The notes under the pieces are model-generated. The model ran no database searches, was not told where the DNA came from, and worked only from the letters and a program-made list of their open reading frames with translations. Source: Giardia intestinalis (Eukaryota). From it: 64,000 nt of DNA. Positions 8,171 to 62,668 of this stretch are shown one piece after another. The stretch lies in NCBI GenBank assembly GCA_000002435.2, contig CM018790.1. One strand, written 5' to 3'. Every line of letters begins with the position of its first letter. The first letter of the stretch is position 1. Position numbers and translations under genes: made by a program.

Positions 8171-8892
8171 GTAGTTCCACCATTGCACTCAGTATAGGCT
8201 TCGTTCTCTTTGCCTTCGTTATTGCACGTCTTACAGCCCGGTGTTATGCAGTTGCTAGTCGATTGGCATTCAGTTGAATCAGCGCTAGGCTGGAAGCCTT
8301 CACTGTATGTGCAAGCACCACCCTGATTGGACGAGTTGGCAGGGCAACTAGCAACGCACGACTTTTTGTTGAGGCCAAAGATGGTCTTATCAGAATCGGG
8401 GCACTCTTTGCATACTGCTCCGTCGCCGTTCTTTTCACAAGTCTTACAATCTTTTGCCCCGCCCGATGTGCAGGTAGTGCAGGTTTTCGCTGCTTCATCT
8501 ATGTAGTGTGTTGCTGGGCAATCGCCCTGATTAACGCACGTGCCTGTCTCACTGCCATCCTCCTTCTTCAGGTAGAGCGTGGCTCCAGTACACGAGGTGC
8601 ACTGCGTCTCTGTATTCTCGCATGTCTTACAGCTGGAAGCACATTTGCTGCATTTCTTTCCATTACGTGAGTCCACAAAATACCCATTATTGTAATCGGC
8701 CTCCTCGACACACGACGTTACGCCGTCGACTGTCTTGACAATCTTGCCGCCTCCACATGCATTGCACATCGCTGCCTTAGTGTTACTAGGATTAGCTGGC
8801 GTATTTGCTATCTGAATGAGTATTGTGTCGTGGTTTCCCGCAGCGGAGAAACCGCCACAGAAGAAGCCGGTGGGATCACCGGTGATAAACAT
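7304..8892 (-). pseudogene. Variant-specific surface protein (VSP) pseudogene or chimera. The N-terminal Cys-rich segment (8014..8892) is joined out of frame (-1 nt) to the duplicated VSP C-terminal region (7304..8188). No signal peptide after its first ATG.
   Basis: Two overlapping minus-strand ORFs in different frames. The upstream one is CXXC-rich (CKTC, CTSC, CKEC...). The downstream one is identical to the C-terminus of the intact VSP, including the TM segment and CRGKA tail. Comparison with the right copy shows a 1-nt length difference at the junction (left aatggtggaactacc vs right aatgataaaagttatc), which is exactly the repeat boundary. In-frame upstream sequence hits TGA with no hydrophobic leader. 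Confidence 0.6.
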
Positions 8893-9210
8893 AGCAAAGG
8901 TAAGGTTGTACGAGGGTCAGTCCTCTGAATACATTTGTGCAGAGAACCACCGAGGGAATCAGAACAGATACAAGTGGGCTAGAGGCTTTGTTATTGAAAC
9001 AGGAACCTGCTACGTCAACGATGAAAGCCCGTTCTTGGCTTCAGAGGCAGAGTCATGACAGTAGCTAGCCACTGAATGATGACGCATCCATTAGAGCTTA
9101 TTGTTCTCAACGTCTGGATCTACAATCAGATTAGTGGCAGTCCATAGTTTTACTATTGCAATTCTTCGAAGAGCAGACGCGAGTCGATAACCGAGTGTAG
9201 GTTTCGGCTA

Positions 9211-12200
9211 ATGTTGCTAGGGCTTCTCCTATTTTGTGCAGTAGCACGGGCAAACTGCAAGGCCGGGAACACGCCCTCACAAGACGGGACGACGTGCGAG
9301 CCGAATGCAAACGGATGTGCCAAAGCCTTGACCGACGCCGGCTGTGCGACCTGCACCCCGGCGGGTGACGACCAGACGTGCCTCACCTGCAACCCCGGTT
9401 CAAACAAGGTCAGGCCGGACAGGAAGGGCTGCATCGCTTCGTGTCCCGCCAACTCGAACGAGGCAGGAGGAATCTGCACGTGCACGGCCGGGAACACGCC
9501 CTCACAAGACGGGACGACGTGCGAGCCGAATGCAAACGGATGTGCCAAAGCCTTGACCGACGCCGGCTGTGCGACCTGCACCCCGGCGGGTGACGACCAG
9601 ACGTGCCTCACCTGCAACCCCGGTTCAAACAAGGTCAGGCCGGACAGGAAGGGCTGCATCGCTTCGTGTCCCGCCAACTCGAACGAGGCAGGAGGAATCT
9701 GCACGTGCACGGCCGGGAACACGCCCTCACAAGACGGGACGACGTGCGAGCCGAATGCAAACGGATGTGCCAAAGCCTTGACCGACGCCGGCTGTGCGAC
9801 CTGCACCCCGGCGGGTGACGACCAGACGTGCCTCACCTGCAACCCCGGTTCAAACAAGGTCAGGCCGGACAGGAAGGGCTGCATCGCTTCGTGTCCCGCC
9901 AACTCGAACGAGGCAGGAGGAATCTGCACGTGCACGGCCGGGAACACGCCCTCACAAGACGGGACGACGTGCGAGCCGAATGCAAACGGATGTGCCAAAG
10001 CCTTGACCGACGCCGGCTGTGCGACCTGCACCCCGGCGGGTGACGACCAGACGTGCCTCACCTGCAACCCCGGTTCAAACAAGGTCAGGCCGGACAGGAA
10101 GGGCTGCATCGCTTCGTGTCCCGCCAACTCGAACGAGGCAGGAGGAATCTGCACGTGCACGGCCGGGAACACGCCCTCACAAGACGGGACGACGTGCGAG
10201 CCGAATGCAAACGGATGTGCCAAAGCCTTGACCGACGCCGGCTGTGCGACCTGCACCCCGGCGGGTGACGACCAGACGTGCCTCACCTGCAACCCCGGTT
10301 CAAACAAGGTCAGGCCGGACAGGAAGGGCTGCATCGCTTCGTGTCCCGCCAACTCGAACGAGGCAGGAGGAATCTGCACGTGCACGGCCGGGAACACGCC
10401 CTCACAAGACGGGACGACGTGCGAGCCGAATGCAAACGGATGTGCCAAAGCCTTGACCGACGCCGGCTGTGCGACCTGCACCCCGGCGGGTGACGACCAG
10501 ACGTGCCTCACCTGCAACCCCGGTTCAAACAAGGTCAGGCCGGACAGGAAGGGCTGCATCGCTTCGTGTCCCGCCAACTCGAACGAGGCAGGAGGAATCT
10601 GCACGTGCACGGCCGGGAACACGCCCTCACAAGACGGGACGACGTGCGAGCCGAATGCAAACGGATGTGCCAAAGCCTTGACCGACGCCGGCTGTGCGAC
10701 CTGCACCCCGGCGGGTGACGACCAGACGTGCCTCACCTGCAACCCCGGTTCAAACAAGGTCAGGCCGGACAGGAAGGGCTGCATCGCTTCGTGTCCCGCC
10801 AACTCGAACGAGGCAGGAGGAATCTGCACGTGCACGGCCGGGAACACGCCCTCACAAGACGGGACGACGTGCGAGCCGAATGCAAACGGATGTGCCAAAG
10901 CCTTGACCGACGCCGGCTGTGCGACCTGCACCCCGGCGGGTGACGACCAGACGTGCCTCACCTGCAACCCCGGTTCAAACAAGGTCAGGCCGGACAGGAA
11001 GGGCTGCATCGCTTCGTGTCCCGCCAACTCGAACGAGGCAGGAGGAATCTGCACGTGCACGGCCGGGAACACGCCCTCACAAGACGGGACGACGTGCGAG
11101 CCGAATGCAAACGGATGTGCCAAAGCCTTGACCGACGCCGGCTGTGCGACCTGCACCCCGGCGGGTGACGACCAGACGTGCCTCACCTGCAACCCCGGTT
11201 CAAACAAGGTCAGGCCGGACAGGAAGGGCTGCATCGCTTCGTGTCCCGCCAACTCGAACGAGGCAGGAGGAATCTGCACGTGCACGGCCGGGAACACGCC
11301 CTCACAAGACGGGACGACGTGCGAGCCGAATGCAAACGGATGTGCCAAAGCCTTGACCGACGCCGGCTGTGCGACCTGCACCCCGGCGGGTGACGACCAG
11401 ACGTGCCTCACCTGCAACCCCGGTTCAAACAAGGTCAGGCCGGACAGGAAGGGCTGCATCGCTTCGTGTCCCGCCAACTCGAACGAGGCAGGAGGAATCT
11501 GCACGTGCACGGCCGGGAACACGCCCTCACAAGACGGGACGACGTGCGTATCAGAGACGGCCTGCAATACTCCCAACTGCAAGGCATGTGATAACCCGAA
11601 GACTGACAGAGAGGTCTGTACTGAATGTAATGATAAAAGTTATCTCACTCCAACAAATCAGTGCGTATCCGACTGCACGGCCATCAGCGGATACTATGGA
11701 GATACTGACAGGAAGTGTAAGGCATGCAGCCCTGAGTGCGCTGAGTGCGTTGGGCCAGCCAACAATCAGTGTAGTGCTTGTCCTGCTGGCAAGGCATTAA
11801 TATACAAAAGTAGTGATCCTATGCAAGGGGGCACCTGCGGGGATGCGTGTACGGCGGACAAGAACGGATGTAAGGTCTGTGGGGCAAGGATCGGCGGGAC
11901 AGACTACTGCTCCCAGTGCTCAGTGGATAATCAGGCTCCTCTGAACGGGGTCTGTACAACAAGTAACGCACGAGTAGCTTTCTGTACTGAAATGAATAAT
12001 GGAGCATGTACCAAATGCGCCGCTAACTACTTCCTCAAGGAAGGCGGCTGCTATGAAACTACCAAGCAGCCAGGCAAACAGATATGCACATTAGCTGATA
12101 GCAAGGGTGAGTGCGAAACATGTGCCAATGGTCTTCAGCCCAATAATGGAGCATGCCCCTCGTGTCATTCGACCTGCAAGACATGCTCGACTGCAGATAG

Positions 12201-12510
12201 CTCTGATAAGTGTACGTCATGCGCAGCTGGGTACTATATGGTCGGATCAGCAGCTGGACCATGCACTTCGTGTGACAGCAACAGTGGAAGTGTCAAGGGA
12301 GTTGCTGGCTGCATGAGCTGCGCTCCTCCATCTAATAATCAAGGCTCCGTCCTCTGCTACCTCATGAACGGTGACAGTGCCGGCGGAAGCACGAACAAGA
12401 GTGGCCTTTCTACCGGCGCCATTGCAGGCATCGCCGTGGCCGCTGTCATCATCGTCGGGGGCCTCGTCGGCTTCCTCTGCTGGTGGTTCCTCTGCCGCGG
12501 AAAGGCATAG
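9211..12510 (+). CDS. vsp: Variant-specific surface protein (VSP), intact, 1099 aa. Has signal peptide MLLGLLLFCAVARA, ~10 identical 75-aa Cys-rich tandem repeats, conserved C-terminal Cys-rich region, a TM segment (GAIAGIAVAAVIIVGGLVGFLCWWFL) and the CRGKA cytoplasmic tail.
   Basis: ATG at 9211; many CXXC motifs; GGCY-like motif; C-terminal ...CWWFLCRGKA* is the invariant Giardia VSP tail; AGTAAAC poly(A) signal 20 nt after the TAG stop. Confidence 0.92.
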   Translation: MLLGLLLFCAVARANCKAGNTPSQDGTTCEPNANGCAKALTDAGCATCTPAGDDQTCLTCNPGSNKVRPDRKGCIASCPANSNEAGGICTCTAGNTPSQDGTTCEPNANGCAKALTDAGCATCTPAGDDQTCLTCNPGSNKVRPDRKGCIASCPANSNEAGGICTCTAGNTPSQDGTTCEPNANGCAKALTDAGCATCTPAGDDQTCLTCNPGSNKVRPDRKGCIASCPANSNEAGGICTCTAGNTPSQDGTTCEPNANGCAKALTDAGCATCTPAGDDQTCLTCNPGSNKVRPDRKGCIASCPANSNEAGGICTCTAGNTPSQDGTTCEPNANGCAKALTDAGCATCTPAGDDQTCLTCNPGSNKVRPDRKGCIASCPANSNEAGGICTCTAGNTPSQDGTTCEPNANGCAKALTDAGCATCTPAGDDQTCLTCNPGSNKVRPDRKGCIASCPANSNEAGGICTCTAGNTPSQDGTTCEPNANGCAKALTDAGCATCTPAGDDQTCLTCNPGSNKVRPDRKGCIASCPANSNEAGGICTCTAGNTPSQDGTTCEPNANGCAKALTDAGCATCTPAGDDQTCLTCNPGSNKVRPDRKGCIASCPANSNEAGGICTCTAGNTPSQDGTTCEPNANGCAKALTDAGCATCTPAGDDQTCLTCNPGSNKVRPDRKGCIASCPANSNEAGGICTCTAGNTPSQDGTTCEPNANGCAKALTDAGCATCTPAGDDQTCLTCNPGSNKVRPDRKGCIASCPANSNEAGGICTCTAGNTPSQDGTTCVSETACNTPNCKACDNPKTDREVCTECNDKSYLTPTNQCVSDCTAISGYYGDTDRKCKACSPECAECVGPANNQCSACPAGKALIYKSSDPMQGGTCGDACTADKNGCKVCGARIGGTDYCSQCSVDNQAPLNGVCTTSNARVAFCTEMNNGACTKCAANYFLKEGGCYETTKQPGKQICTLADSKGECETCANGLQPNNGACPSCHSTCKTCSTADSSDKCTSCAAGYYMVGSAAGPCTSCDSNSGSVKGVAGCMSCAPPSNNQGSVLCYLMNGDSAGGSTNKSGLSTGAIAGIAVAAVIIVGGLVGFLCWWFLCRGKA
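9262..11547 (+). repeat. In-frame tandem array of ~10.2 identical 225-bp units inside the VSP gene. Each unit encodes 75 aa (...AGNTPSQDGTTCEPNANGCAKALTDAGCATCTPAGDDQTCLTCNPGSNKVRPDRKGCIASCPANSNEAGGICTCT).
   Basis: Identical shadow ORFs recur every 225 nt (9344, 9569, 9794 ... 11369) on the plus strand, and the minus-strand ORF 9153..11582 shows a matching 75-aa periodicity. No unit-to-unit differences visible in the translations. Confidence 0.93.
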
Positions 12511-15500
12511 ATTTAGATATGACTTAGGTAGTAAACGCATCTACTATGTGTAGCCTGTGATACTCAAACCACTACGGACCCCTGCACAACGCGCAGGGAA
12601 ACAGAAAATCCAAAAACAAGCGGTGATGCCGCCCCATGTGCCTGCTGCCTCGCGGCCAATCAGAGAACGAATCGGGTGCCTTTGCTGCGCCTAAGCCCCA
12701 CTGCCGGCTCCTTTCCTGGTGTCTCTACATCCCTGGAGAGCCAGCATCCACGCCTTCCCTGTACGAGTCGGGTCTCTGCGGACCCCTGTGCATCGGCACT
12801 CTCCTCTCAGCCTCTGTAGTACTCTCATCCCTTTGGATTATGTCTGCGACTTCCGGCTGTCGTGGGGGAATCGCACTCAAGGACAGTCCCTTGCGAGATC
12901 CCGAAAGAAGGTTACAGTGGTCGCTAGGGTCCATGAAAGGTGTGAATCAGCATAGAGTAGCTCGTGAGACGCTCTGATCTATTGGGAATGCATGGCGCTA
13001 TTTCTGATCTTTTGTAATGAATACTTTAAGACACTCCATCACCTGACAAGGTGCCAGGTGGGCTCAGAAGGCAGCCAGCCCTCCCAGATCTGGACAAGAT
13101 GGAAGCACTACCCAAAGCGTGCTGTCTCCTGAGCCAGTGAACTAGGACTCCTGTCACCCCAGATCATCATAGTGCTACCGCTGTCCACTATGGAAGTACT
13201 TGGACCCACAGTGCCTGAGGTTGTTGGTGCAGGCGGCAAAGGGCTCTTCATAGTGGGCTACCATCAGTGGAAGGAACGGGAGCCTGGGTGTCTTGTCCTT
13301 CTGCCAGTGATCGGCACCCGTTGCTGTGGGTACTGGGGTGGCGGAAGTTCCCACCTGCTGACAAGGAGCCGGGCGATGTTCGCTTGTCATTGTCAACCCG
13401 GGCTGTGGCTGGCCCTGGGCAGATAGACAATGAGCACAGGGATCCCGTCCCCCGTCGTAAACCACGCCACACAGAAAGGGTGTGGTAGCTCGATGGATCT
13501 CCCCACACTGCACAACCAAAGAAGAACGGCCCTTTGGTGCGTAGCTCTGGGAGCCTGCAGAGCCTGACTGAGGGGATCACGTCTTGACGTTGATTTCTGA
13601 TACGGTTCGGTAGAGGCCAGATTGATGCTCGCAAGCTTGTGAGAAGCACCAGGGCCGGCACATGCACCTGGACAGCAATGCAAGCACACATCTCGGATGC
13701 AACTCCGCTGAGGATCTTGCGAGGGGTCGGCTTGGGTCAGTGGTGGAAGGACTTTGCGCAAGCGCTCCATGCATCAGGGGCCCCTCGAGACCACGAAAGC
13801 TCGGCGGCGCTGGCGCACATGTGACCGCGTGACAGCTTACAGGTGGAAAGGCTGGGCGCGCATAACAATACGCCCATGAGAGCTATGCACAGCGCAGTGG
13901 CCCGGCTGGCTCCTCTCGTAATACGGAGCATCGGTTGCGGGCATGTGCTCTTGAAGAGTAGGGGGCACCCAGATGAGTAGTGCAGACGTGAGTGAATTGA
14001 CGGCGCTCAGAGTAAGCATCGGGTGGACAAGTAGGAGACAAGAGCTTATGGCACCACCTGGTCGATGAACGACTCAAGATATGTGACGTATAGCAATCCT
14101 TCGACAGGAGGTGATGATTGGCCGACAGATGCCAGAACAGATGTGCAGATTGGAGCCCTGGTGGTGGTCTGCCACAAGAGGACGCAGGCAGTATCCGTTT
14201 GGATAGTAGATACGCTGACTGCCACCGGTTTGCACAGCACACCTCTACAATCGATCCCAGCCTGTATAAGGAAAGAAAGCGAATGTTCTCGGTTTCAGAC
14301 AGAGCAGACCCCGATAAATACTATGCTGCTACAAACACATAAAATCAAAAGACAGCGTCCGTCTCATCTGCAGACCCCACAGCCCTTCCATGCTCAGAAG
14401 CCGGGGAGGCACTACAGGCGTCCTTTGTGCAACCCGGGCCGATGGCTGGACTCGCTAGTGCTAGTCCTATCTCCCTGGCCCGCCGGTCACCCCTGCCTTC
14501 TCTCCGGGAACTGCCGCGTACGGATAGCCTCCTCGGCTGAGGCGTATCACCAGGGACCAGCACTAAGGCAAGCGCGGCCGGAGACAGACACCTCGCAGTT
14601 GTCCAACGCTAGCAGCGAGTATGCAAATGAGTGTGCATCTTTGACGAGTGTGCTGTGATCTAGATGCCCGGAAGGCTGGGCTCATAGCAGCTGGTGCGCA
14701 GGCCCCATCGCTAGCCTCACACGCAAGTTGCTGGTCTATCTTGGAGGGCGGCGGGCGTCCCTGCTGCAATCAGCACTTGCTTTGCCAGTAGCGATGGCCC
14801 AGGTCATGGTATCTGGTCCACGCTGAATGTCACGCAAGGATGCGCCTACTGCTCGAGAGGACCAGCACGGCATCTGCCGGTCTACGGGCGCACGTGCTCT
14901 CCCATTGTGGCAAGCACAGGGAAGGAGTGGTCGCCAGTGGGGCAGCTAGACGTGCTGGCCGGCGCCGCCATGCACAGGTGAAGCAGCTGCCCCTCCATGA
15001 ATACGCTACCCTGCCCACATAGCTGCGTCCCTTGAGCTGCTCGTGGCCATGGGTACCTATGACACGGCAGATGCCGAAGGGCGTCGTAAGGGACCCCCAT
15101 GCCCCTTATCGAGCAAGCTGGCGCGACATAGCCGGCCCTGTGCGGGGGGGCGCTGTTCTAGGAGACGGTGGCCGCCACGGACACGTCCGTTCTAGTAGTA
15201 AACGGCGGACCTCCGTGACGGCGTCCGTTATCATGGCTTCCATCTGCATGTCGAGTCTAGCTGCTGACTGGCCCGGACAGGCGGCAGGCGAGACCCTGGG
15301 CCGCTCGCACGTAACCCAGCGGCTGTCTGCTCAGTCGAAGGGATGCAGCCTTAAATATGCGTCCACAGGGCAGCATCCGCCGCCGATGGGAACGACTCAA
15401 CCGCTCTTCTAGCTTTAGCTAAACAGTCCTGTCCTCGAAGTGCACCGGGAGGCCCTTGTCCAGCACACATCATACGATATTCGGAGGTCATGAAGTGCGT

Positions 15501-42088: not shown

Positions 42089-43708
42089 ATGACTGCTGAA
42101 CTGTTGCAGCTCAAAAACCAATTCTACGATCTTGCCAAGGAACTCCTCGGTCAACTCGATCCTTCAGAAGCTCAAGAAAAGACATCAGCGGCAAACACCT
42201 ACCATGTGGAAGGCACGTTCGCGGGGTTCTTAAGCAAAAATATCCTGGAGCAATGCGAGCGCCGCCTGCCTCACGCATCTAGACCCGTCTGTTTGGATTC
42301 TTCACAGAGTCAACGGGATCATACATTAGCAATGGCCGCACTGTTAATTCCTATCTATAATTTAATAGCTAAGTATCACTTAACGCAGGTAATGAGTTGT
42401 GCAAGCAGGCGTCTTGTCACAACCATTGACGACACAGCGTTTCCTGTAAGGACTCTCAGTGGCGCCTCTTTATCTATAGAAGACATCCTAACCGTGAAGA
42501 CCCCTAACGCGTGGCTAAATGACGAAGTAATCAATGCACAGGTGTCACTTATAAATGCTCGTTGCAAGGGGCTTTCAATTGCAAACACACACCTTTATAG
42601 CAAGGCTTTGTCCTCAGGACCATACGGGCTAGAGGCCTGGCTCCGTCCTCTTCTATCCCAGCCAATAGAAACCTTTGTTATACCAATGAATCTAAACAAC
42701 ACACACTGGACAGCATGCTCTATACATCTTCAAGGGCATTTTGTTTTCTGCTTTGATTCTATGCGTGCCATTAACACACGCACAATCAAACCAGTTCTCC
42801 TGCTTCTGTTAACTTACGCAGATATGTTTGGATTGACCAGGGATGTCATACATAGGAGCTTAGTAGTTTTGTTCCCGGGGTTCGCACGCACATTCATAGA
42901 GATAGATGAGGAGGAGCATATACTTGAAGAGCTAGCTAGTATTGAGAAACAACGTGCCAATATTGCATTACTTTCACAGAGCGTCGGAGAAAACATAGAT
43001 ACAATATCAATTTCGTCCACAGGATCAGATGCAGAGCTTAGTTCGGTGCAGGCTGTACTCACTTCATCTGCCAACACAGATACCAGGCCCAAACGAATCT
43101 TCGAGAAGCTTGCACTTCAGCGTCCACGATCGTCGTACTACTTGTTGCACAGGATGAGGCTTAGTATGTGTGGTATATCCAATTCCACGGACAGTACCGG
43201 GCTCCTCTCCAGACCAACGATTGACACTAAAGAGCAGGATGATCTAATAGCTACCAGGGGAGCCCCTACATCTCCCGCAGCTGCAAACATAGTTCTGGAG
43301 ATCTTATCTACCCTTACTGCATGCACAGCAGACATTGAAGTCGCAGGGCAAAGGCTTCACGATGAGGGGCTTGACACTCTTTTGGATTCCCCTTCAAGTG
43401 ATCTCCTGTTTGTAGATGTGAAGACAGCAGAGATAGCTTTGCACAAGCTGCGTAGAGAATACAACATTGGGAGCCTGCTTACTTCTGCTGCAGAAGCAGT
43501 AATGCTTTCACTGAATATGCCTCAGCAAGAAAATGGGTATGATTGCGGAGTCTATATGCTGTTATTTATGAAGATGATTGCACGTCAGTTTGGACCTGGC
43601 TATCCACTTGTGGCCCAGGACACCAAGAGAGTAAGGTCCCTTATAACTATGGAGGTGTGTAAGCAAAAGCTACTGATCACCCCGCAAGATCTGGACGAGC
43701 TCTGCTAG
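42089..43708 (+). CDS. Ulp1/SENP-family SUMO-specific cysteine protease (peptidase C48) with an unusually long insertion between the catalytic His and Cys.
   Basis: NAWLNDEVIN (Ulp1 N-terminal signature), catalytic His-Trp in NNTHWTACSIHL, FDSM, and catalytic Gln/Cys in QQENGYDCGVYML. About 290 aa separate His and Cys, versus ~80 typically. Confidence 0.75.
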   Translation: MTAELLQLKNQFYDLAKELLGQLDPSEAQEKTSAANTYHVEGTFAGFLSKNILEQCERRLPHASRPVCLDSSQSQRDHTLAMAALLIPIYNLIAKYHLTQVMSCASRRLVTTIDDTAFPVRTLSGASLSIEDILTVKTPNAWLNDEVINAQVSLINARCKGLSIANTHLYSKALSSGPYGLEAWLRPLLSQPIETFVIPMNLNNTHWTACSIHLQGHFVFCFDSMRAINTRTIKPVLLLLLTYADMFGLTRDVIHRSLVVLFPGFARTFIEIDEEEHILEELASIEKQRANIALLSQSVGENIDTISISSTGSDAELSSVQAVLTSSANTDTRPKRIFEKLALQRPRSSYYLLHRMRLSMCGISNSTDSTGLLSRPTIDTKEQDDLIATRGAPTSPAAANIVLEILSTLTACTADIEVAGQRLHDEGLDTLLDSPSSDLLFVDVKTAEIALHKLRREYNIGSLLTSAAEAVMLSLNMPQQENGYDCGVYMLLFMKMIARQFGPGYPLVAQDTKRVRSLITMEVCKQKLLITPQDLDELC

Positions 43709-51434: not shown

Positions 51435-51730
51435 AGGTGGTCGTCTCCAGAGTTTTTCCAGAAGTGACGTCCTCATATGATGGCATTGAGATTTAACAGT
51501 CAAGCAATCTTGCCGAGCAATCTTGTCTAGGTAACAATGAGAGAGCGGGAGACTGTCTCAAGTGCGCCCACTTTTCAAGACCATTTACAGCACTTGTGAT
51601 AATTACAGCTAAAATGGGCTGAAGCAGCGCTGTCTAATTACAGAATAAACGTCTCCGTCTTTTAATCTTGAGGTACCAGCTCGCAATTAATTTCGCAAAT
51701 CACGCGGGAATCTGTGTCAAGCCAGGATCT

Positions 51731-54700
51731 ATGGCACTGGCGCGCTTTCCACAGCACTATAGATTTATTGGACTTGCCAACATTGGCGGAGATGAGCTTA
51801 TCTATAAATTGCTTGACGAGACTACCGAGCAAGAGGTCTTCTGCACAATCTTCACTTTCGATCAGCTGCGCAAGAGGGCTTATACAGAGCTTCTTTCCTT
51901 TATACAAATATACACCGCACTGGATCACAGAGGCTTGATGCGCTATCGGGCCATTGAAACAGAGCCGGCAGATTTGAGGCTTTTCTTCATGACAAGTACA
52001 TACAATGTGAATCTTGCCAAGCTAAACTTACTAATGCGTCAGGAAGGAAAATCCTATTGCGAACTGGCACTCTGGCAAGTAGCTGCCCAATTGATTGACA
52101 CCATGACCTATTGCAATCTTCCGCGAACCCGTCAGTTTGGCCACAAAAGCACCCGCCTTGCAGCAAATTCCTTTCCTCATTGTGTCCTACGGCCATTTAT
52201 CATTGTAATAACAAATTCATTCACCCAAGAGTCAGACCTATTAAAGCTATCTACCAATTCAAAGCAGGCCGCCTTGTTTCCTCTCTCGATCAAGGTCATG
52301 CCTGGTGTCCTCACTGTGGGCCAACTGCGTCAGTTTCAAACAACTGCTGCTAGATCGCACCTTTCGCACATGGCCCCCGAGCTTCTCCTTGACTCCGAGG
52401 AGGTGAGTCCCTCTGGAGCAGTCGACATCTGGTCTGTAGGATCAGTTTTGTATGAAATGGCCACAGGGAAAACTTACGACTCTGCTATTGACCCAACGAC
52501 CAATCTTAGGACATACTCCTTTGAATTTCAAAGTATGCTCCGATCAATGCTATCCATAAAGCAATCTGACAGACCAACTTTTGAGGACCTGCTGAAAGCT
52601 GAGAGAATACGCTGCGTACTATCCGACATACAAACAGGTTCCCAGGGTCCTGCATCGAGCCAACCGGACAAACTGATTCTCCAGTCAGTTGAGCTGCAGG
52701 CACGTGAGCTTCTCGCAAAGCTTCCATATTCTACCGCTGAGCAGGCACAAATGGTAGCAAGTTGGCAACAAGAACTTCCTCATGAGCCAAATTACCTACT
52801 AGGAGTAATGAATATGATCGATGATGGGTCCTATCGCTGTCACACTCCCACTGGGAACAGGTTTGTGCACACTAGTTCCAGCGCTTCCCAGTCTCTCCGA
52901 TCAAGAGTAGCCCAGACTCCTGCATCAATTCATACGGGAAAGAATACCCGTTATGGAAGAAAGATGGCAAAAAGCCCGGCCGGGGTGCAGGACTCCTACA
53001 CGCAGCTTATGCAGCACGCTCTGAAAGATAATCTACTGAAGGCTAAAAAGGCTATGGACCAGGTGTGTATAGTTTTCACAGACGGGACGTCTGCCCTAAT
53101 GCTTGCAGCTGAAAATAATTCTCTTGAAGTTGCAAAGCTCTTGGTATCATATGAGTGCTGCCTACAGTCCAAAACCGGGCTCACTGCTCTAATGTATGCA
53201 GCAAGAAGAGGCCATGCAGATCTGGTGTCTCTCCTTCTCAACCACGAAAGCATGATGGTGGACTCTCGTGGCTACACGGCACTTATGCACGCTATAGACC
53301 AGGGTCACCTAGAGTGCATCCGAATCCTTGTAAAAGCAGAAACAAATTATAGTGCTCCGAATGGCATTACGGCGGGACTGCTTGCTACGAAGGACATAAA
53401 TGACGTCATGAAGCAGTTTAGGTGCCACTCGGCGTCCCAAATGACGTCTGCTAGCACCTATGGGACTCCTGACGGTAGGCAAACACCCAGCACAAGAAGA
53501 TCTGTGACACCCAGCAACAACTCCAGCCTTAGTATAAGCACTAGACATCAAACTGTCGCTGAGAAGCTTGCGATTGCTCAGATTGTCACTGCTCATGAGG
53601 ACACCCGTGACCCCGTAACACACGTGACATGCCTTATGCTAGCAGCCCAGCATCACTCTGTAGAATTGGTGCAAATGTTCATACACCAGGCTGGTTGCCA
53701 AACACCCAAAGGGCTTACGGCCCTCCATATTGCTGTTCAGGAACTGTTTGTTGACGGTGTTACGCTTCTAGCCCCTTGCGAGATGCGTTATACCACACAG
53801 TATGCTACCAACGGGTTTGGTTTCCATAGAGCGACGGCTCTTTGTCTCGCTGCTCTTGTAGGCGGATGCTCAGATAACAAAAATACGTCTCAGGGTCATC
53901 TCGTAAGTAGTCAGGGAGATCGGGGACCCTCTTCGTACAACTACTTTCGAAGCGTCAGCCAATACAGCTTCAATCACGCCTTGTCTGCAAGAAGCACTAC
54001 TAAGAGCAACCGAGATAACGAGCGGGCCATCCTCTCTATTCTAAATCTCCTAGTCCCACTCGAGGCCACCTATGCGGAGCCTGGCACAGGGAAAACTGCC
54101 CTTATTGCAGCAGCGACTGTCGGTAACGCACTCGCTGTCCGAGCACTGGCAAAGCACGAGGGTGGCTGCAAGATGATAAAGGGCTGGACAGCGATGATGT
54201 GTTGTGTCTGCCGGGCAAGCTCCACAACAGCGCAAAACCTGTGCACATACATCGAGTGCATAAACGCTCTAGCCCCATATGAACAAGGTATGACGTCTGA
54301 ATGTGGGTGGACGGCTCTTGTCTATGCCAGTGCCTACCTGAACCTTGCGTGTATAGAGGTGCTGGCGCCCTTAGAAGCAGCGCTGTCAGGAGAGACGGCG
54401 CTGAGCTTTATGGGTGCTCTCGTGGCTGAGGGTGAGATGACCAAAAGCGAGTGGCAGTATTCTATGTCCCAGGCAAGATCCTTGATAGTAGAGTACCTAA
54501 GATCACACTCTCTTACTGGTTTGCCGCCGCAGCAGCAACTATCCATAGGAGAGCTTCCTGACGATCGGGATATGAAGAAATACATTAACAATAAGTCCGG
54601 CCTCTTTGACGACGAGAGCGAAATCTCCATTCTTGAAGGAAAGTATTTCCGCTGGGAGGGGCCACCAGACTCTAGCATTGCCGGAGAGCCCATGCATGGG

Positions 54701-54985
54701 GGTGCACGGGCAAGCTCAGGGCTTCATCCACAGCGCCAGAGCCAGGTGAAGAAGGAGGTCTTGCCGGATGTGTCAGCTGTCGTCGACAAGAGTTTTGCAC
54801 GCGAGCAGAAAAGCTTTCAATGCCAGACCTCTGTTGCTATTCCAGAGCAAGAGAAATCATATAGGTATACATTCAATTCTAAGCCTCTTCCACCTCTTAT
54901 CACTGCCTCCCCATCCGCCGGGGATCATCTTCCAATTCTCCCGCCCCTGAATTCTCATAAAAATTCTCATAAAATCCGCAATTAA
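51731..54985 (+). CDS. NEK-like pseudokinase with ankyrin repeats (ATG at 51731; the track's 51668 start is non-ATG).
   Basis: Kinase subdomains VIII-IX retained (HMAPELLL, DIWSVGSVLYEMATG) but no Gly-loop or HRD. Ankyrin units (GTSALMLAAENNSLEVAKLLV, GLTALMYAARRGHADLVSLLL, GYTALMHAIDQGHLECIRILV, GKTALIAAATVGNALAVRALA). Confidence 0.75.
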   Translation: MALARFPQHYRFIGLANIGGDELIYKLLDETTEQEVFCTIFTFDQLRKRAYTELLSFIQIYTALDHRGLMRYRAIETEPADLRLFFMTSTYNVNLAKLNLLMRQEGKSYCELALWQVAAQLIDTMTYCNLPRTRQFGHKSTRLAANSFPHCVLRPFIIVITNSFTQESDLLKLSTNSKQAALFPLSIKVMPGVLTVGQLRQFQTTAARSHLSHMAPELLLDSEEVSPSGAVDIWSVGSVLYEMATGKTYDSAIDPTTNLRTYSFEFQSMLRSMLSIKQSDRPTFEDLLKAERIRCVLSDIQTGSQGPASSQPDKLILQSVELQARELLAKLPYSTAEQAQMVASWQQELPHEPNYLLGVMNMIDDGSYRCHTPTGNRFVHTSSSASQSLRSRVAQTPASIHTGKNTRYGRKMAKSPAGVQDSYTQLMQHALKDNLLKAKKAMDQVCIVFTDGTSALMLAAENNSLEVAKLLVSYECCLQSKTGLTALMYAARRGHADLVSLLLNHESMMVDSRGYTALMHAIDQGHLECIRILVKAETNYSAPNGITAGLLATKDINDVMKQFRCHSASQMTSASTYGTPDGRQTPSTRRSVTPSNNSSLSISTRHQTVAEKLAIAQIVTAHEDTRDPVTHVTCLMLAAQHHSVELVQMFIHQAGCQTPKGLTALHIAVQELFVDGVTLLAPCEMRYTTQYATNGFGFHRATALCLAALVGGCSDNKNTSQGHLVSSQGDRGPSSYNYFRSVSQYSFNHALSARSTTKSNRDNERAILSILNLLVPLEATYAEPGTGKTALIAAATVGNALAVRALAKHEGGCKMIKGWTAMMCCVCRASSTTAQNLCTYIECINALAPYEQGMTSECGWTALVYASAYLNLACIEVLAPLEAALSGETALSFMGALVAEGEMTKSEWQYSMSQARSLIVEYLRSHSLTGLPPQQQLSIGELPDDRDMKKYINNKSGLFDDESEISILEGKYFRWEGPPDSSIAGEPMHGGARASSGLHPQRQSQVKKEVLPDVSAVVDKSFAREQKSFQCQTSVAIPEQEKSYRYTFNSKPLPPLITASPSAGDHLPILPPLNSHKNSHKIRN

Positions 54986-55010: not shown

Positions 55011-55241
55011 ATGCTCCTTAAAGTTCAGTTGACGACAGGCTACATTCTCACGCTCGATGTAGCACCGACAGAGACGATACTCGACATAAAGAATAAGGTG
55101 TATGACCAGGAGGGAATACATCCTGCCCAGCAGAAAATGTTATACTTGGCCCAGCAGCTACAGAACACTACCACCGTCGAGGAGGCCAACCTCAAGGCAG
55201 GAATCACTATCCAGTTAGTCGTTAACCTGAGGGGAGGCTAG
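55011..55241 (+). CDS. Ubiquitin-like modifier, 76 aa, ending exactly in LRGG-stop (NEDD8/Rub1-like or another ubiquitin-like modifier; too divergent to be ubiquitin itself).
   Basis: Same length as ubiquitin; MLLKV...TGYILTLDVAPTETILDIKNKVYDQEGIHPAQQKMLY...LVVNLRGG* aligns at ~33-35% identity to both ubiquitin and NEDD8; di-Gly terminus with no extension. Confidence 0.75.
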   Translation: MLLKVQLTTGYILTLDVAPTETILDIKNKVYDQEGIHPAQQKMLYLAQQLQNTTTVEEANLKAGITIQLVVNLRGG

Positions 55242-56767: not shown

Positions 56768-58249
56768 CTAGGCACCTATTTTAGCGAAGAGGCGAGCGTT
56801 TGGTGTGCATCCTGCACTCTCGAGTGTAGCAGATACGTCTTGCATAATGTCATCTCCAAAAGGTCTGTGTAAACGAATTCTTCCACAATCGATATTCAAA
56901 GCGTCTCCAATCCGTTCAATCATGGACTCGATTGTGTACGAAAACGGGAGCTTTAGTAGCAGGTGGTGATCATTGAGCGCCGAATCGGGGCTTGACACCC
57001 GTATCCTCAGCGTCGCGACTCTGCCATCATCTGCTGTTTCTGTAACGATTGTGGTCGACGACAGATTGTCCTTGCCGGCTTCCTTCGCCTGCTCAGCGGG
57101 GGTCTTCCCGTGCACAAGAAGCCCCAGTGCCTCCTTCATAGGGACGATTTGGCCGTTGCTTACACAAGTTCCTTTCACTCGCGACAGGAATTGCTGTAGA
57201 GACATCGGCTTCTCCAGATTGGCCCGTTGATCAAGTAATTGGTCGTACGAGTAATTATGCCTGTTGCCGTATTCTGATACCGTCAAGTAGCTACGTTTGA
57301 CGCTCCCGTGCTCTGCCGCCGCCTCAATAGTGCTCTTGGCCGGCTTTGGAGGAGGGGGCGGCTGCGCAGACTCATCAATCATGAGCTTCGCCTGTCCCTC
57401 AAATAATTCCACACCACAGGACTTGAAGGGCTCTGCCTCAAATGAGGCGTCAATTGAAATGCCGTCGGGATGCGAGGCCCGAAACTCGGAGGGGAGAAAC
57501 CCAGCTGCGATATCCTCTACGAACTCCTTCGCAGTCTTGTCGTGCTCATAAGCTCTGAATGGCCCCCTCTTGATGAAGATGCCATTGGGGTAGAAGCGCA
57601 CAGGAATTGAAGGCTTGTCACCATACCGGCCCTGATTGCCTCCGTCTGCCACCAGAACTCGATCCTTCGAAACAAGCTGATTAAGCTTTCTGATGTTGTC
57701 CTCGAGGATGTGTCTTTCCGGGGGCTCCCAGGTCTCTGTAGAATCCCCTATGTGATCGAGCTGTAGCGTATGCTGCACAGCACGGGGTGCAGGCTCTTTT
57801 GATGAGTCAGTATCCTCCACATAAATGAGGCCGTGCGAATCCAGGAACAACTCCATGTCATAAATTTGCTGCCTGAGAACCTCAATGTAATCCTTCAGAG
57901 CCATGATCTCGTCTACGTTGGCCTGCTCCCCCGCTGCCGCAAGTCTGCAAAGGTCTACCTTTTGCCGCAGAGAAGTGTTTTCATCGTTGGCCCGTCTGAG
58001 CATCAACTTCAATTGCTGGTTTTCAGCCTCCACTTTTGTAAGGCGGTTAGCGAGACTAGAAACCAGATCCTGCGCACCATTCTTGGGCATCAAAGGCTTG
58101 GCAGCAGCGCTCTTCACCACCTGTCCAGAAGGCCTATCCCCACGAAGGGCCTGTCGCAGTTGCTTTAGGTCATACTGATCCTGCTTGTCCAGCTGTGCGC
58201 GCACCGGCTTGGGGAGCTCCGTACGATACTTCTGGTGACCCTCCTCCAT
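56768..58249 (-). CDS. SEP-domain / UBX-domain protein (p47/Shp1-like p97 cofactor) with N-terminal coiled-coil. First ATG at 58249; track start 58300 is GTG.
   Basis: SEP-like segment IPVRFYPNGIFIKRGPFRAYEHD; C-terminal UBX-like segment ATLRIRVSSPD...LKLPFSYTIESMIERIGDAL...RLHRPF. Confidence 0.6.
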   Translation of the reverse strand: MEEGHQKYRTELPKPVRAQLDKQDQYDLKQLRQALRGDRPSGQVVKSAAAKPLMPKNGAQDLVSSLANRLTKVEAENQQLKLMLRRANDENTSLRQKVDLCRLAAAGEQANVDEIMALKDYIEVLRQQIYDMELFLDSHGLIYVEDTDSSKEPAPRAVQHTLQLDHIGDSTETWEPPERHILEDNIRKLNQLVSKDRVLVADGGNQGRYGDKPSIPVRFYPNGIFIKRGPFRAYEHDKTAKEFVEDIAAGFLPSEFRASHPDGISIDASFEAEPFKSCGVELFEGQAKLMIDESAQPPPPPKPAKSTIEAAAEHGSVKRSYLTVSEYGNRHNYSYDQLLDQRANLEKPMSLQQFLSRVKGTCVSNGQIVPMKEALGLLVHGKTPAEQAKEAGKDNLSSTTIVTETADDGRVATLRIRVSSPDSALNDHHLLLKLPFSYTIESMIERIGDALNIDCGRIRLHRPFGDDIMQDVSATLESAGCTPNARLFAKIGA

Positions 58250-58809
58250 GAAACCCTTTTTTGAAGCCGCTGGATCAGAGAAGAGATGAACATGTAGCAC
58301 GGTCAGGAATCAGAGCAACGCCTGCAGATGCATAAACTGGACGTCATAGTGTGGGTACCAATAGGTCGCCAAAAGATTCAAAAGGCGCCAGGCGACAGAA
58401 CCTTTGACTTGTTCAAAGGGATCAAGAACTGGCAACGCAGATCTGGCACACATATGTGACGTATAATGGTACATTGTTTGCAAAACAGTTAAAACTTTTT
58501 TCATGGTGATTGGTTCTTTAGCTTGTGGATTAATCAAGGAAAAGCAGAAACACATCAGTCATCAGCCAAGCACCTGAGCAAATTAGATAGATATGCTTCT
58601 AGATCCCAGAGATTATGTGTGCGATAAATCCATCAGCTCGGATCTTCACCGAACAGCGCCCTTTCTCCGTCACGCTAGAGTCTTAACCTAAAACGTGCCA
58701 AAATCGCGTTGGATTTTGAGGACCTGTTTCTTGAAGTCATGTAATTTTTGATGGTTCCGCTTATTTTCTTGGCTGAAGGAAAAACAAAATAAAAGTGTGT
58801 TAAGGCATT

Positions 58810-60273
58810 ATGGACATTAAACAGGATATGAAGGACTCGGCGATCCCGCAGGGAGGCGAGTCCAAGGGGGAACCCAAGACAGAGCCCAAAAAGGGGTGCA
58901 ACTGTACTCTTCTCTACGTGATGTTTCTGATGTTTGGCGTTGGATCGTTGTTGCCATTCAACTGTTACATCACACCTTATGAGTACATGATACGATTCTA
59001 CCCTAAACCCGTTCTCTCGTTCTTCTCTCTGGCCTATAACGTCGGCAATTGGGGCATGATGTTCATCTATCTCAAGATTGGAAAGAAGATACCGGCCCGC
59101 ATGAGCAATATCATAGTGTTCATCATTTGGATAGTCTGCCTTACCGTTGTCCCCTGCCTTGCGTTTCTTGACATAGCCACTATTGCTCGATTCGTTATTG
59201 CTATTATTTTAGTCTTCATCTCAGGTGTTTTGAACGGTATCTGTTTTCCGAAAATCGTCTCTGTCGGTTCACGAATAAGCTTTGATCTAGTCCAGGCCAT
59301 GATGTCTGGGAATGGAGTGGCAGGGATTATTACGGCAGCTCTATATGCTATTACCAAGGGGATTGCTATCGCGAGCAACAATGGTAAGTTTACGGACAAC
59401 CAGCTTAAGTTCGGAACGCTATCGTACTTTATCTTGTCCGATGTGATCCTCCTGATATGCATTTTTTGCTGGATCAAAGTCATGAAGGACTACCCTCACC
59501 TCAACTACGACGAGACCCCTGCAGAGCAGGTGGAGATGGAACCCTCGATCATTAACGGCAGCTCTGCGCAACCCGACAGTGCCCCCAGTAATGCCATGCC
59601 GCAGGGGTCCGCCTCCCTCGGGAACGAGACCATTGATCAGTCTGTCCTGCCAGTAGGCAACTTGCTTAACCCCAAGACGGGGCAGAAGTATACCTTCATG
59701 CAGCTGGTGCGCGTCCTCCTGGTTCCAGGCCTCGGTGTTTTCTTTGTATTCTTCATTACTCTAGCTTTCTTCCCCTCCATCACAGGAAAGATACCATATG
59801 TTACTGGAGTTAATAATAACCTTGACGACAAAGGCTGGTGGTCTGTCGGTATGACGAGTCTCTTCATGATCTTCGACTACGTGGGCCGATCGCTTCCTCA
59901 AATCGAAGTTCTGACACGGATTCGTACGACCCCTCTTCTCATTTTCTCTTTGCTGCGGATCGTCTTTGGAGTTCTTTTTCTTCTAATGGGCATTCCTGTC
60001 CCTACTCTGAGTAACAATAGCATCTCTAGGATCAATGCACCCATTCAAAATGATTACGTCTCAACCATCACTATGATACTCTTTGCTCTCACGAATGGAT
60101 ACGTTAGCACTGTGATCATGATCCGCTATGGCGACCACGTGCCTCACCCGTCCTACATGGCTGCCTCTGGTGACATAATGTCCTTCTGGCTCAACACGGG
60201 TCTTATTGCTGGAGGCTTGGTATCGCTCTTTATTGATCTAGGGATGGATCCCACGGCTTTGAATGTGAGTTAA
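58810..60273 (+). CDS. Equilibrative nucleoside transporter (ENT/SLC29 family), ~11 TM segments.
   Basis: ENT N-terminal signature LMFGVGSLLPFNCYITPYEY (compare LLG.G.LLPWN.FIT), large cytoplasmic loop between TM6 and TM7, hydrophobicity pattern consistent with 11 TM segments. Confidence 0.7.
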   Translation: MDIKQDMKDSAIPQGGESKGEPKTEPKKGCNCTLLYVMFLMFGVGSLLPFNCYITPYEYMIRFYPKPVLSFFSLAYNVGNWGMMFIYLKIGKKIPARMSNIIVFIIWIVCLTVVPCLAFLDIATIARFVIAIILVFISGVLNGICFPKIVSVGSRISFDLVQAMMSGNGVAGIITAALYAITKGIAIASNNGKFTDNQLKFGTLSYFILSDVILLICIFCWIKVMKDYPHLNYDETPAEQVEMEPSIINGSSAQPDSAPSNAMPQGSASLGNETIDQSVLPVGNLLNPKTGQKYTFMQLVRVLLVPGLGVFFVFFITLAFFPSITGKIPYVTGVNNNLDDKGWWSVGMTSLFMIFDYVGRSLPQIEVLTRIRTTPLLIFSLLRIVFGVLFLLMGIPVPTLSNNSISRINAPIQNDYVSTITMILFALTNGYVSTVIMIRYGDHVPHPSYMAASGDIMSFWLNTGLIAGGLVSLFIDLGMDPTALNVS

Positions 60274-60405: not shown

Positions 60406-61056
60406 ATGAGGATCTTGGTTGACATGGATGACACTCTTTGCGACTGGATGGGCGCCTCTACAGCTCGCATAACAGAACTGGGGTATCCCGTTAGTAGGGA
60501 CCCGCATGCATACCCCGTTTCAATAGTCTTGTCGGAGGATTATGGGCTTCGCGCCACAACTCTTTTATACCGCGCAATGCGAGAACCAGGATTCTTCATA
60601 AATCTGCAGCCACATAAAGAGGCTGTGGAAATGGTACGTTGTTTGGATTCGCTTGGCTTTGACGTGTGCATTTGCACGATGCCCCTCCCCTATGACAAGG
60701 AGGACTGGTGCAAGGAGGAAAAGCGGGCATGGGTGGCTAACCACCTGGGCTATAAGTTTGTCGATAAGATGATCTTTTCGTCGCGGAAGTACGAGGTTGC
60801 GGGGCTCTATTTGATTGATGACTCGCCTGTGACAGTGCATTATGCTGAAACGCACAATCCTCAATGGAAGCCTGTCCTTGTCAACCACTTCTATAACAAG
60901 GATCTCTTTTGCGAGCGGCGCGTTTCTCTAGAGACCATGCAGAGGGATGTGCTTGAAATACTGAATAGAGACGGTATTCTGCCGTCAGATTCCGCTACTC
61001 TTACCCCATCAATCAGCGAATTGCAGTTCACTCTTGCGCAAGAGACAATTGCTTAA
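60406..61056 (+). CDS. 5'(3')-deoxyribonucleotidase (HAD-superfamily, NT5C-like).
   Basis: N-terminal HAD motif I ILVDMDDTLCDW (compare VLVDMDGVLADF of NT5C), conserved mid-region LPY..., C-terminal Asp motif YLIDDSP. Confidence 0.7.
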   Translation: MRILVDMDDTLCDWMGASTARITELGYPVSRDPHAYPVSIVLSEDYGLRATTLLYRAMREPGFFINLQPHKEAVEMVRCLDSLGFDVCICTMPLPYDKEDWCKEEKRAWVANHLGYKFVDKMIFSSRKYEVAGLYLIDDSPVTVHYAETHNPQWKPVLVNHFYNKDLFCERRVSLETMQRDVLEILNRDGILPSDSATLTPSISELQFTLAQETIA

Positions 61057-61090: not shown

Positions 61091-62668
61091 ATGGACATTG
61101 AAGATCAGGTTGCACCTGCGCTTGCACACGCTCAATCCACTTCCCCTCTGCTCACGAATGTGCGGGTTATGATGGTAACCATGGGATGCGGCCACAACGC
61201 TGCTGAAAGTGATATAATTGCAAGTGCTTTGCAGACAGCGGGGGCCGTCATCACCCACAGCAACGGGAAGTACATAACACCAGAGAGCGCCAGAGATGTG
61301 GACGTCCTGTACATCAACTCGTGCACCGTGAAGAATCCGTCCGAGGACAAAGCCTTTGTCCATGTTCAGAAGGGATTGGAGGTTGGTACGGTCGTCGTGC
61401 TTGGCGGCTGTGTTCCCCAGTCTTACGGAACCGTGAATGATGAGCTCCGAAAAGCGTCTGCCGCGAAGCAGCTCATCATTTCAGGGGTGCTTACTCAGCA
61501 ATGGCTAGCAGCGCTTCCAAGGCTTCTTCGCGAGGCCATCGATCTTCATATTCTAAACAATTCTCACTTACTGCAACCTGCTTTACGAATGACGCAGCCA
61601 TCGGACAAGGCAGGAGTTCCTGCTGCTATCTCATACGTCACCAAGGAAGCTACAAAAGACGTCGAAGTAGAGTATCTGAAGTGCACTCCAGTCCACCGTG
61701 CTAATCCTATCATTGACATTATTTCGACTGGCAGTGGATGCATGGGATCTTGCACATACTGCAAAACGTGCCACAGCCGTGGAAGACTGCGCTCAGTACC
61801 TCTAGATACCTTACTGGCGCGTATACGTAGTAGCCTGGCTGACCCTATTATCCGTGAGCTTTGGCTGACGGGAGAGGACACGCTTGCATGGGGCCGTGAA
61901 AGTGACGCAACTTTCGCTGTACTCTTGCAGGAAGTCCAGAAACTTTTCGAAACAGAGAACCCGACACATAAGATGCTGAAGATAGGGATGACAGATCCTG
62001 ACTCTGTTATCAACCAGGAGGACTCTCTGATATCCTTTATGCGCTGTAAGTATGTGTACAAGTTTCTCCACTTACCTGTGCAGTCAGGGTCAGATCGGAT
62101 TCTAACCCTGATGCGACGCCATTACGACATAGAAACCTTCTTGAGGTCTTGCTCTAAGCTGCAGTCTGCCGTTCCAGATCTTTGCCTAGATACAGATATA
62201 ATATGTGGCTTTCCTGGCGAAACCGATGAAGACCATGCACAATCTCTCAACCTTTTCCGTAACCTCAAAGAGGACGCACCACGTTTTCAGGTCGTCAATA
62301 TTACACAGTACTATGCTCGGAAAAACACGCCTGCCGCATCCATGGAGCAGGTTCCTGCCAGTAAAAAGCGGGAGCGTACCAGAGAGATGTCTGAGGTCGT
62401 TAAAAATTCATTTCGGAGGGATCAATATCACGGTCAAGTTCATGATATCATGGTGCTAGAAAGGCTGCAGACGGAGAACCATGGGCGACAATATGGAGGC
62501 AAAACGTATAATAACCTCACAGTGGCCATAGAGGCGGTCGATCAGGAGGTGCCTATTAAGTTGGGCTCGTACGTACGCGTTCGCATAACAGGCTCTACGA
62601 GAGTGGCCCTGATAGGATCGGTAATGACTTACCATAGCTCGCCCGTAATAGTGCGGCGAGTGGAGTGA
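61091..62668 (+). CDS. Radical-SAM methylthiotransferase (MiaB/CDKAL1-like tRNA methylthiotransferase) with N-terminal MTTase domain and C-terminal TRAM-like domain.
   Basis: MTTase N-domain Cys pattern (VMMVTMGCGHNAAESD ... DVLYINSCTV ... VLGGCVPQ), radical-SAM CxxxCxxC (GCMGSCTYC), C-terminal barrel GSYVRVRITGSTRVALIG. Confidence 0.8.
   Translation: MDIEDQVAPALAHAQSTSPLLTNVRVMMVTMGCGHNAAESDIIASALQTAGAVITHSNGKYITPESARDVDVLYINSCTVKNPSEDKAFVHVQKGLEVGTVVVLGGCVPQSYGTVNDELRKASAAKQLIISGVLTQQWLAALPRLLREAIDLHILNNSHLLQPALRMTQPSDKAGVPAAISYVTKEATKDVEVEYLKCTPVHRANPIIDIISTGSGCMGSCTYCKTCHSRGRLRSVPLDTLLARIRSSLADPIIRELWLTGEDTLAWGRESDATFAVLLQEVQKLFETENPTHKMLKIGMTDPDSVINQEDSLISFMRCKYVYKFLHLPVQSGSDRILTLMRRHYDIETFLRSCSKLQSAVPDLCLDTDIICGFPGETDEDHAQSLNLFRNLKEDAPRFQVVNITQYYARKNTPAASMEQVPASKKRERTREMSEVVKNSFRRDQYHGQVHDIMVLERLQTENHGRQYGGKTYNNLTVAIEAVDQEVPIKLGSYVRVRITGSTRVALIGSVMTYHSSPVIVRRVE

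Follow-up and report, generated by a model that had tools for sequence, protein, structure and literature searches.

A strongly constrained ubiquitin-like modifier of Giardia intestinalis and its possible descent from NEDD8

Is the 76-residue protein encoded at this locus of Giardia intestinalis a ubiquitin, as databases name it, a highly derived NEDD8/Rub1, or a modifier invented within its own lineage? The original prediction, made from the letters of the DNA, had left the choice between a divergent NEDD8/Rub1 orthologue and a lineage-specific ubiquitin-like modifier. We took up this question in a window of 64,000 nucleotides (the whole stretch of DNA analysed). Our analyses suggested that this either/or was well framed, given that a NEDD8 profile is preferred over a ubiquitin profile and that R72 and the key lysines of ubiquitin are absent.

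The gene, its locus and its conservation

The stand-alone, 231-bp reading frame that had been predicted was found exactly as described (Table 1). It comprises 76 codons, running from MLLKV to NLRGG, and encodes MLLKVQLTTGYILTLDVAPTETILDIKNKVYDQEGIHPAQQKMLYLAQQLQNTTTVEEANLKAGITIQLVVNLRGG, after which TAG follows directly. The predicted absence of a C-terminal extension likewise held, as LRGG stands immediately before the stop codon in every Giardia lineage examined. Exact protein matches in the NCBI and UniProt entries of G. intestinalis WB identified the gene as GL50803_8843 (XP_001705938.1 / A8BNL2), named "Ubiquitin", and an exact-sequence match identified the neighbouring ZPR1 as XP_001705937.1. 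The synteny table published with the G. muris genome places GL50803_8843, again as "Ubiquitin", between GL50803_8842 (ZPR1) and GL50803_14786 (NEK kinase), with NT5C, a SEP-domain protein, a methylthiotransferase and an inositol phosphatase close by; because the gene order in the window is the order of that table, the reading frame is GL50803_8843. The tryptic peptides of its product include VYDQEGIHPAQQK and MLYLAQQLQNTTTVEEANLK.

Table 1. Positions of the features discussed, numbered along the window
Feature	Position	Strand	Remarks
Peptidase_C48 ORF, XP_001705948.1, "Ulp1 protease family protein"	42089-43708	+	539 aa; 11.3 kb upstream of the ubiquitin-like gene
NEK/ankyrin kinase ORF	51668-54985	+	stop 25 nt before the start codon of the ubiquitin-like gene
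AT-rich element, CTCATAAAAT(C/T)CG(C/T)AATTAA	54966-54985	+	kept in assemblages A, B and E
Coding region for the 76-aa modifier of the ubiquitin family	55011-55241	+	ORF listing; ATG at 55011; stop codon included
C-terminal tail codons N72-L73-R74-G75-G76 and TAG	55224-55241	+	from the sequence
Codons L73-R74-G75-G76	55227-55238	+	
Stop codon TAG	55239-55241	+	
SEP-domain protein ("Socius" in the G. muris table)	56768-58300	-	two genes from the ubiquitin-like gene
Nucleoside transporter	58810-60273	+	
NT5C-type 5'-deoxynucleotidase	60406-61056	+	
Radical-SAM methylthiotransferase	61091-62668	+	

The order kinase, ubiquitin-like gene, ZPR1, SEP-domain gene was also found in assemblages B and E and on two more Giardia-like contigs, L001 and L007. 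The former (Logan SRR22936437) comes from a Giardia that falls, in distance, between assemblages A, B and E on the one hand and G. muris on the other, its ZPR1 and its kinase tail being 78.6% and 45.6% identical, respectively, to those of assemblage A. The latter is G. muris-like, with gene lengths that agree with the G. muris table (NT5C 207, SEP protein 470, ubiquitin-like protein 76, kinase 987), and its syntenic 76-aa orthologue reads MLLRIQLSTGYLMTLDVAPSETILDLKNRIYDQEGIFPAQQKVLYMAQQLQNHVTIEEASLKAGVTLQLVVNLRGG followed by a stop codon. This orthologue is 76% identical to that of WB, and all 18 changes are conservative. Across the genus, 55 of the 76 columns do not vary, among them those of Q48 and N72 and of the tail QLVVNLRGG-stop, which is unchanged in five lineages (assemblages A, B and E, L001 and L007). 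Between positions 500 and 800 of L001, gene calling produced a 70-aa protein (P0002) with an internal start; the true reading frame there has 76 codons, starts with MLLKVQLPTG and has an A-rich run just before it.

At the nucleotide level, the coding sequences of assemblages A and B differ by 35 synonymous and 0 non-synonymous changes, those of A and E by 24 synonymous changes and one non-synonymous change (V5I), and those of A and L001 by 39.5 synonymous and 8.5 non-synonymous changes (dN/dS about 0.015). With dN/dS of about 0-0.02 across Giardia, these counts indicate very strong purifying selection on the gene. Lack of expression would have counted against the original prediction; RNA-seq puts GL50803_8843 at an FPKM of 188.5 in trophozoites (PMC7029713). 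GL50803_8843 is a genuine gene of Giardia, far beyond what chance would produce, and is both expressed and strongly conserved.

These data bear on the reading that the protein is a non-conjugated ubiquitin-like adaptor, or the product of a decaying copy in which the LRGG end is a relic. Such a protein would fit with the altered canonical hydrophobic patch and with the supplementary data of a secretome paper and of Nino 2013, in which searches for 8843, XP_001705938 and MLYLAQQ returned no peptide or conjugate of the protein. The lack of any non-synonymous change between assemblages A and B and the level of expression speak against it, as does the tail, which is invariant as far as the G. muris-like orthologue when a relic would not be expected to stay exactly C-terminal. 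We therefore regard an adaptor or relic as highly improbable.

The AT-rich element sits 26-45 nt 5' of the start codon and overlaps the last codons and the stop of the NEK kinase reading frame. L001 and L007 have other AT-rich runs directly before ATG instead. We consider the element a putative promoter or initiator of the ubiquitin-like gene, judging from its position and conservation. On the G. muris-like contig the spacers are very short, with 5 nt between the kinase and the ubiquitin-like gene and 1 nt between the latter and ZPR1, tail to tail.

Outside Giardia, a synteny walk from ZPR1 in Spironucleus salmonicida, Hexamita inflata and contig L008 found no ubiquitin-like gene beside ZPR1, and tblastn within these ZPR1 loci gave no significant match to the protein; an intermediate sequence from another diplomonad did not turn up there. 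L008 (Logan SRR31929897, positions 1-12928) is a diplomonad-like contig with a ZPR1 52% identical to that of Giardia; it keeps the SEP protein, ZPR1, NT5C and an inositol-phosphatase-type gene, and lacks the ubiquitin-like gene and the NEK kinase there. Since part of the neighbourhood is thus kept without the ubiquitin-like gene, the adjacency of this gene to ZPR1 may be specific to Giardia.

Other genes in the window deserve mention. SEP domains are found in p47/Shp1-type p97 cofactors, and the SEP-domain gene is another neighbour related to the ubiquitin system; it lies next to ZPR1 in every Giardia locus, an arrangement partly retained on L008. The nucleoside transporter and the NT5C-type gene could form a nucleoside-salvage pair.

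The original prediction had also pointed to a Ulp1/SENP-type protease gene 11 kb away and hinted at a link with the modifier. The gene is present, and the link was rejected as unsupported: its product matches SUMO proteases, and the two genes are separated by several unrelated ones. The structures matched by the C48 protein were SENP5, Ulp1 and SENP1-3, and SENP8/DEN1 was not among its solved-structure matches at E<=0.01. According to the literature, the single C48 enzyme of Giardia is the SENP5-like deSUMOylase GL50803_16438. The gene in the window thus looks like a SUMO protease that is probably unrelated to the ubiquitin-like gene. Its Pfam match (residues 142-242) covers the first part of the catalytic domain, and a Cys-box-like motif (QQENGYDCGVYML) lies near residue 495; together these suggest an insertion of roughly 250 residues within the catalytic domain.

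Ubiquitin, NEDD8 or neither

Profile searches, which had been proposed as a check on the prediction, placed the protein clearly in the ubiquitin family. The Pfam ubiquitin profile (PF00240) matched residues 4-74 across positions 2-72 of its 72, with E=1e-15 and 57.7 bits where the cut-off is 25.4, far above a weak match to Rad60-SLD (27.5 bits). The single-sequence AlphaFold2 model was unusable (pLDDT 56), and an alignment-based model was used instead, which gave a beta-grasp fold. Structure searches confirmed this fold and returned ubiquitin chains as the closest structures, although ubiquitin and NEDD8 are not separable this way. SUMO was ruled out as an identity, given the low Rad60-SLD score and the 15-16% identity to SUMO structures; the SUMO of Giardia is encoded by a separate gene, GL50803_7760 (PMC7029713).

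Pairwise identities were somewhat higher than the 33-35% first estimated: BLASTP gave 39% identity and 70% positives to human ubiquitin, ungapped over all 76 residues, and 37% identity and 63% positives to human NEDD8. A word-index homologue search with the protein alone returned matches within Giardia and none beyond, evidently because too few exact 5-residue words are common to the protein and any ubiquitin or NEDD8. In a HMMER search of 1.84 billion representatives, the 150 matches listed were all polyubiquitin or multi-UBL proteins (4-18 matched stretches), and no single-domain orthologue was among them.

The name "Ubiquitin" in NCBI and UniProt, the label "Ub" in PMC7029713, the best Pfam family and the closest structures would all suit ubiquitin proper or a functional ubiquitin isoform. 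Nevertheless, this reading has very little probability. Ubiquitin is more than 98% similar among humans, yeast and apicomplexans (Castellanos et al., 2020; PMC7029713), and the protein of GL50803_8843 reaches only the 39% identity given above. It lacks K6, K11, K33, K48, K63, R72, L8 and H68, and the only lysines kept across the genus are K27, K42 and K62. Moreover, a canonical ubiquitin exists. Nino et al. (2013) described GL50803_7110 as the single free ubiquitin gene, and in their supplement it appears under XP_001706718.1 / CAA49657.1, together with the MS peptide LIFSGK(GG)QLEDNR, which reports a K48 linkage. Its FPKM of 26,494 is about 140 times that of GL50803_8843 (PMC7029713). Published qPCR primers for GL50803_7110 encode VEPTDT (forward) and LRGGN (reverse), and the forward primer is absent from the 64-kb window. 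GL50803_8843 is not the true ubiquitin of Giardia; that is GL50803_7110.

The same comparison bears on a published inventory. Table II of Castellanos et al. (2020; PMC7029713) lists 8843 as "Ub", with 39% identity and 70% similarity to human ubiquitin, values that our own BLASTP of the window protein repeated exactly, and lists 7110 as "NEDD8", with 84% identity to Arabidopsis RUB1; its "RUB1" (7110) and "Ub" (8843) entries are given as 41% identical to each other. Among our retrieved matches, plant RUB precursors were ubiquitin-RUB fusions, so that the 84% of 7110 is most simply explained by a match to the ubiquitin half. The labels of 8843 and 7110 were thus most likely swapped. Later reviews inherit the labelling claim of PMC7029713. 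Reviews disagree on the point, one giving Giardia a NEDD8 and another stating that there is no clear NEDD8 orthologue and no COP9 signalosome (CSN). GL50803_8843 has long been annotated, in one published inventory under a seemingly wrong label, and is not treated as a separate modifier in the searchable literature. Its identification would correct the record, as databases call the gene "Ubiquitin" and the only inventory listing 8843 appears to mislabel both genes.

With ubiquitin proper set aside, the question became one of descent from NEDD8 or from a diverged ubiquitin copy. The NEDD8 set was collected with a word-masked query that kept polyubiquitins out (best 120 of 2,701 matches), and canonical ubiquitin units, at least 90% identical to human ubiquitin, were cut from polyubiquitin matches; one HMM of equal information content was built per family. 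All four Giardia orthologues, like bona fide yeast Rub1, scored higher on the NEDD8 profile than on the ubiquitin profile (Table 2), so that the searches did not assign the protein unambiguously to ubiquitin; such an assignment would have counted against the original prediction. On the ubiquitin profile, ubiquitin itself scored 173 bits and the Giardia orthologues 52-60. A profile of the Giardia family compared by hhalign scored 96.2 against NEDD8 and 80.1 against ubiquitin. Among 39 ubiquitin-derived control repeats (less than 55% identical to ubiquitin), the maximum shift towards NEDD8 was +5 bits; their mean difference was -10 to -27 bits across identity bins and -15 bits at a similar ubiquitin-profile score.

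Table 2. Scores (bits) on the two family profiles
Protein	NEDD8 profile	Ubiquitin profile	Difference
WB (assemblage A)	71.1	59.7	+11.4
P15 (assemblage E)	69.7	59.2	+10.5
L001	70.9	52.2	+18.7
G. muris-like (L007)	62.5	55.7	+6.8
Yeast Rub1 (sequence verified)	106	83	+23

Single residues and trees gave a mixed picture. In neighbour joining (500 bootstraps, 76 sites), the protein formed a long branch that grouped with NEDD8 in 31% of replicates, lay basal to both families in 61% and joined ubiquitin alone in 0%; the basal placement could reflect long-branch behaviour, or the protein could be neither NEDD8 nor ubiquitin. The 19 discriminating columns comprised six ubiquitin-type, five NEDD8-type, three only-NEDD8, one only-ubiquitin and four neither. 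Of the NEDD8 signature, K4 (R in the G. muris-like orthologue), D16, I26 and V30 match in WB, and the near-invariant E12, E14, E31, E32, H68 and A72 are missing. Residue 72 is an uncharged Asn, not Arg; it is Ala in NEDD8 and Thr in yeast Rub1, and Asn72 occurred in none of the 22 NEDD8 sequences compared. Together with Q48, A63 and Y11, this Asn is invariant across the Giardia orthologues. The L8/I44/H68 patch of ubiquitin is replaced by T, S or P at position 8, L at position 44 and Q at position 68. Orthology is settled neither by the tree nor by the diagnostic residues.

The main competitor of NEDD8 descent is a lineage-specific ubiquitin paralogue, an invention of the genus Giardia or of diplomonads, with the true NEDD8 disappearing along with the cullins. 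WB (39% against 37%), P15 and the G. muris-like orthologue (39% against 33%), though not L001, share slightly more identity with ubiquitin than with NEDD8, and the six ubiquitin-type against five NEDD8-type residues and the basal position in most bootstraps would agree with such an origin, as would the restriction of word-index homologues to Giardia. Furthermore, Giardia reportedly has neither cullins nor Skp1 nor CSN, and the one review recognises no clear NEDD8 orthologue. Against this, the preference of all four orthologues for the NEDD8 profile (6.8 to 18.7 bits) exceeds anything reached by the ubiquitin-derived controls, and grouping with ubiquitin alone occurred in 0 of 500 bootstraps. 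The readable stretches of Giardia ubiquitin (VEPTDT of the primer and the MS peptide LIFSGKQLEDNR) have only T20 in common with the protein as a derived state, and NEDD8 has T20 too. Finally, the UBA3-like and UBC12-like genes reported in the literature are kept and expressed in Giardia, with no other candidate substrate. We hold a ubiquitin paralogue to be rather unlikely. The sequence evidence favours NEDD8 descent over a diverged ubiquitin copy, short of proof, and GL50803_8843 encodes what we regard, with modest confidence, as a beta-grasp modifier of the ubiquitin/NEDD8 clade that is most likely a highly derived NEDD8/Rub1 descendant.

A candidate conjugation pathway

If GL50803_8843 encodes a NEDD8/Rub1 descendant, a route by which it could be conjugated can be sketched. 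First, as read from the sequence, the protein is translated in its mature form, already ending in LRGG with a Gly-Gly open to adenylation by an E1, so that it needs no processing hydrolase, and its tail carries Asn72 where ubiquitin has Arg72. Recognition by UBA1 depends mainly on Arg72 of ubiquitin, a residue that the UBA3 gate excludes. Asn72 should therefore bar the ubiquitin E1 (UBA1, GL50803_10661) and be tolerated by a UBA3-type E1. Second, the candidate for this E1 is GL50803_4083 (381 aa), named in the literature, which carries E1 motifs and has an FPKM of 39.0 (PMC7029713). Third, the modifier would pass to the UBC12-like E2 GL50803_31576 (FPKM 10.2; PMC7029713) and be ligated through Gly76 to target lysines, perhaps with the help of an RBX-type RING protein, GL50803_8241 or 8432. 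A single paper assigned 4083 and 31576 to these roles, by reciprocal BLAST at 31-33% identity.

The repertoire of the parasite narrows the possible targets. In a published search of the Giardia proteome with Pfam, 7110 and 8843 were the only free ubiquitin-like proteins, alongside UBA3-like, UBC12-like and RBX-like (8241, 8432) genes. A UCHL3-like hydrolase is also reported. Giardia is reported to be without cullin, Skp1, APC2 and CSN, and no ULA1/APPBP1 partner has been reported. With cullins, Skp1 and the COP9 signalosome reported absent, the targets would have to be non-cullin proteins. Because K6, K11, K33, K48 and K63 are absent and the L8/I44/H68 patch is changed, the protein is probably a mono-modifier and not a proteasome-targeting chain. 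Taken together, GL50803_8843 may serve an orphan conjugation pathway, NEDD8-derived or lineage-specific, that works without cullins, CSN or a processing step, in which a short UBA3-type E1, standing alone, would charge an Asn72 tag that would then be joined singly to non-cullin targets. We put this pathway forward tentatively, well aware that it may be wrong.

Such a pathway, if true, would be a natural experiment on NEDD8-type modification without its canonical substrate class. A constrained NEDD8-like tag in an organism without reported cullins, Skp1 and CSN would also give a direct test of the debated non-cullin functions of NEDD8, and its E1 could offer a target for drugs specific to the parasite. 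In addition, trypsin would leave the same Lys-GG remnant on targets of 8843 as on those of ubiquitin, so that some of the "ubiquitination sites" published for Giardia could be those of 8843, which affects how Giardia diGly proteomics is read.

Comparison with known ubiquitin-like systems

The features that stand out in GL50803_8843 are the absence of a propeptide and the strong constraint that maintains it in a lineage that reportedly has no cullins. With human NEDD8 (1NDD), Rub1 of S. cerevisiae and RUB1 of Arabidopsis (1BT0), the protein shares a length of 76 residues, the beta-grasp fold, the LRGG end and a residue other than Arg at position 72; L2, a basic residue 4, D16 and G64 are further residues in common with NEDD8. 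It also resembles NEDD8 in that its gene stands alone in single copy and is moderately expressed, alongside a ubiquitin that is much more abundant. However, the canonical NEDD8s of animals, fungi, plants and amoebae were nearly identical to each other in the retrieved set, whereas the Giardia orthologues are 33-39% identical to human NEDD8 and up to 43% identical to the closest one retrieved (best 120 of 2,701 matches). Unlike NEDD8, the protein is without E12/E14/E31/E32, H68, A72 and K48, and it has no C-terminal propeptide; at least one residue followed LALRGG in 113 of the 114 NEDD8 proteins retrieved.

Compared with ubiquitin, fold, length and LRGG tail are the same, and the differences lie in Asn72, in the absence of K6, K11, K33, K48 and K63, and in the gene being neither a fusion nor a polymer. 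The ubiquitin of Giardia itself differs from 8843 in having an extra C-terminal residue, as its reverse primer encodes LRGGN. The ubiquitin moieties of Giardia UbS27a and UbL40 are also highly divergent ubiquitin folds, according to their description in the literature, and that of S27a is reported to be uncleaved and to stay in the ribosome. By these descriptions the two are set apart from 8843, since UbS27a and UbL40 are N-terminal fusions to ribosomal proteins, whereas GL50803_8843 encodes a free-standing protein that ends in Gly-Gly directly before its stop codon.
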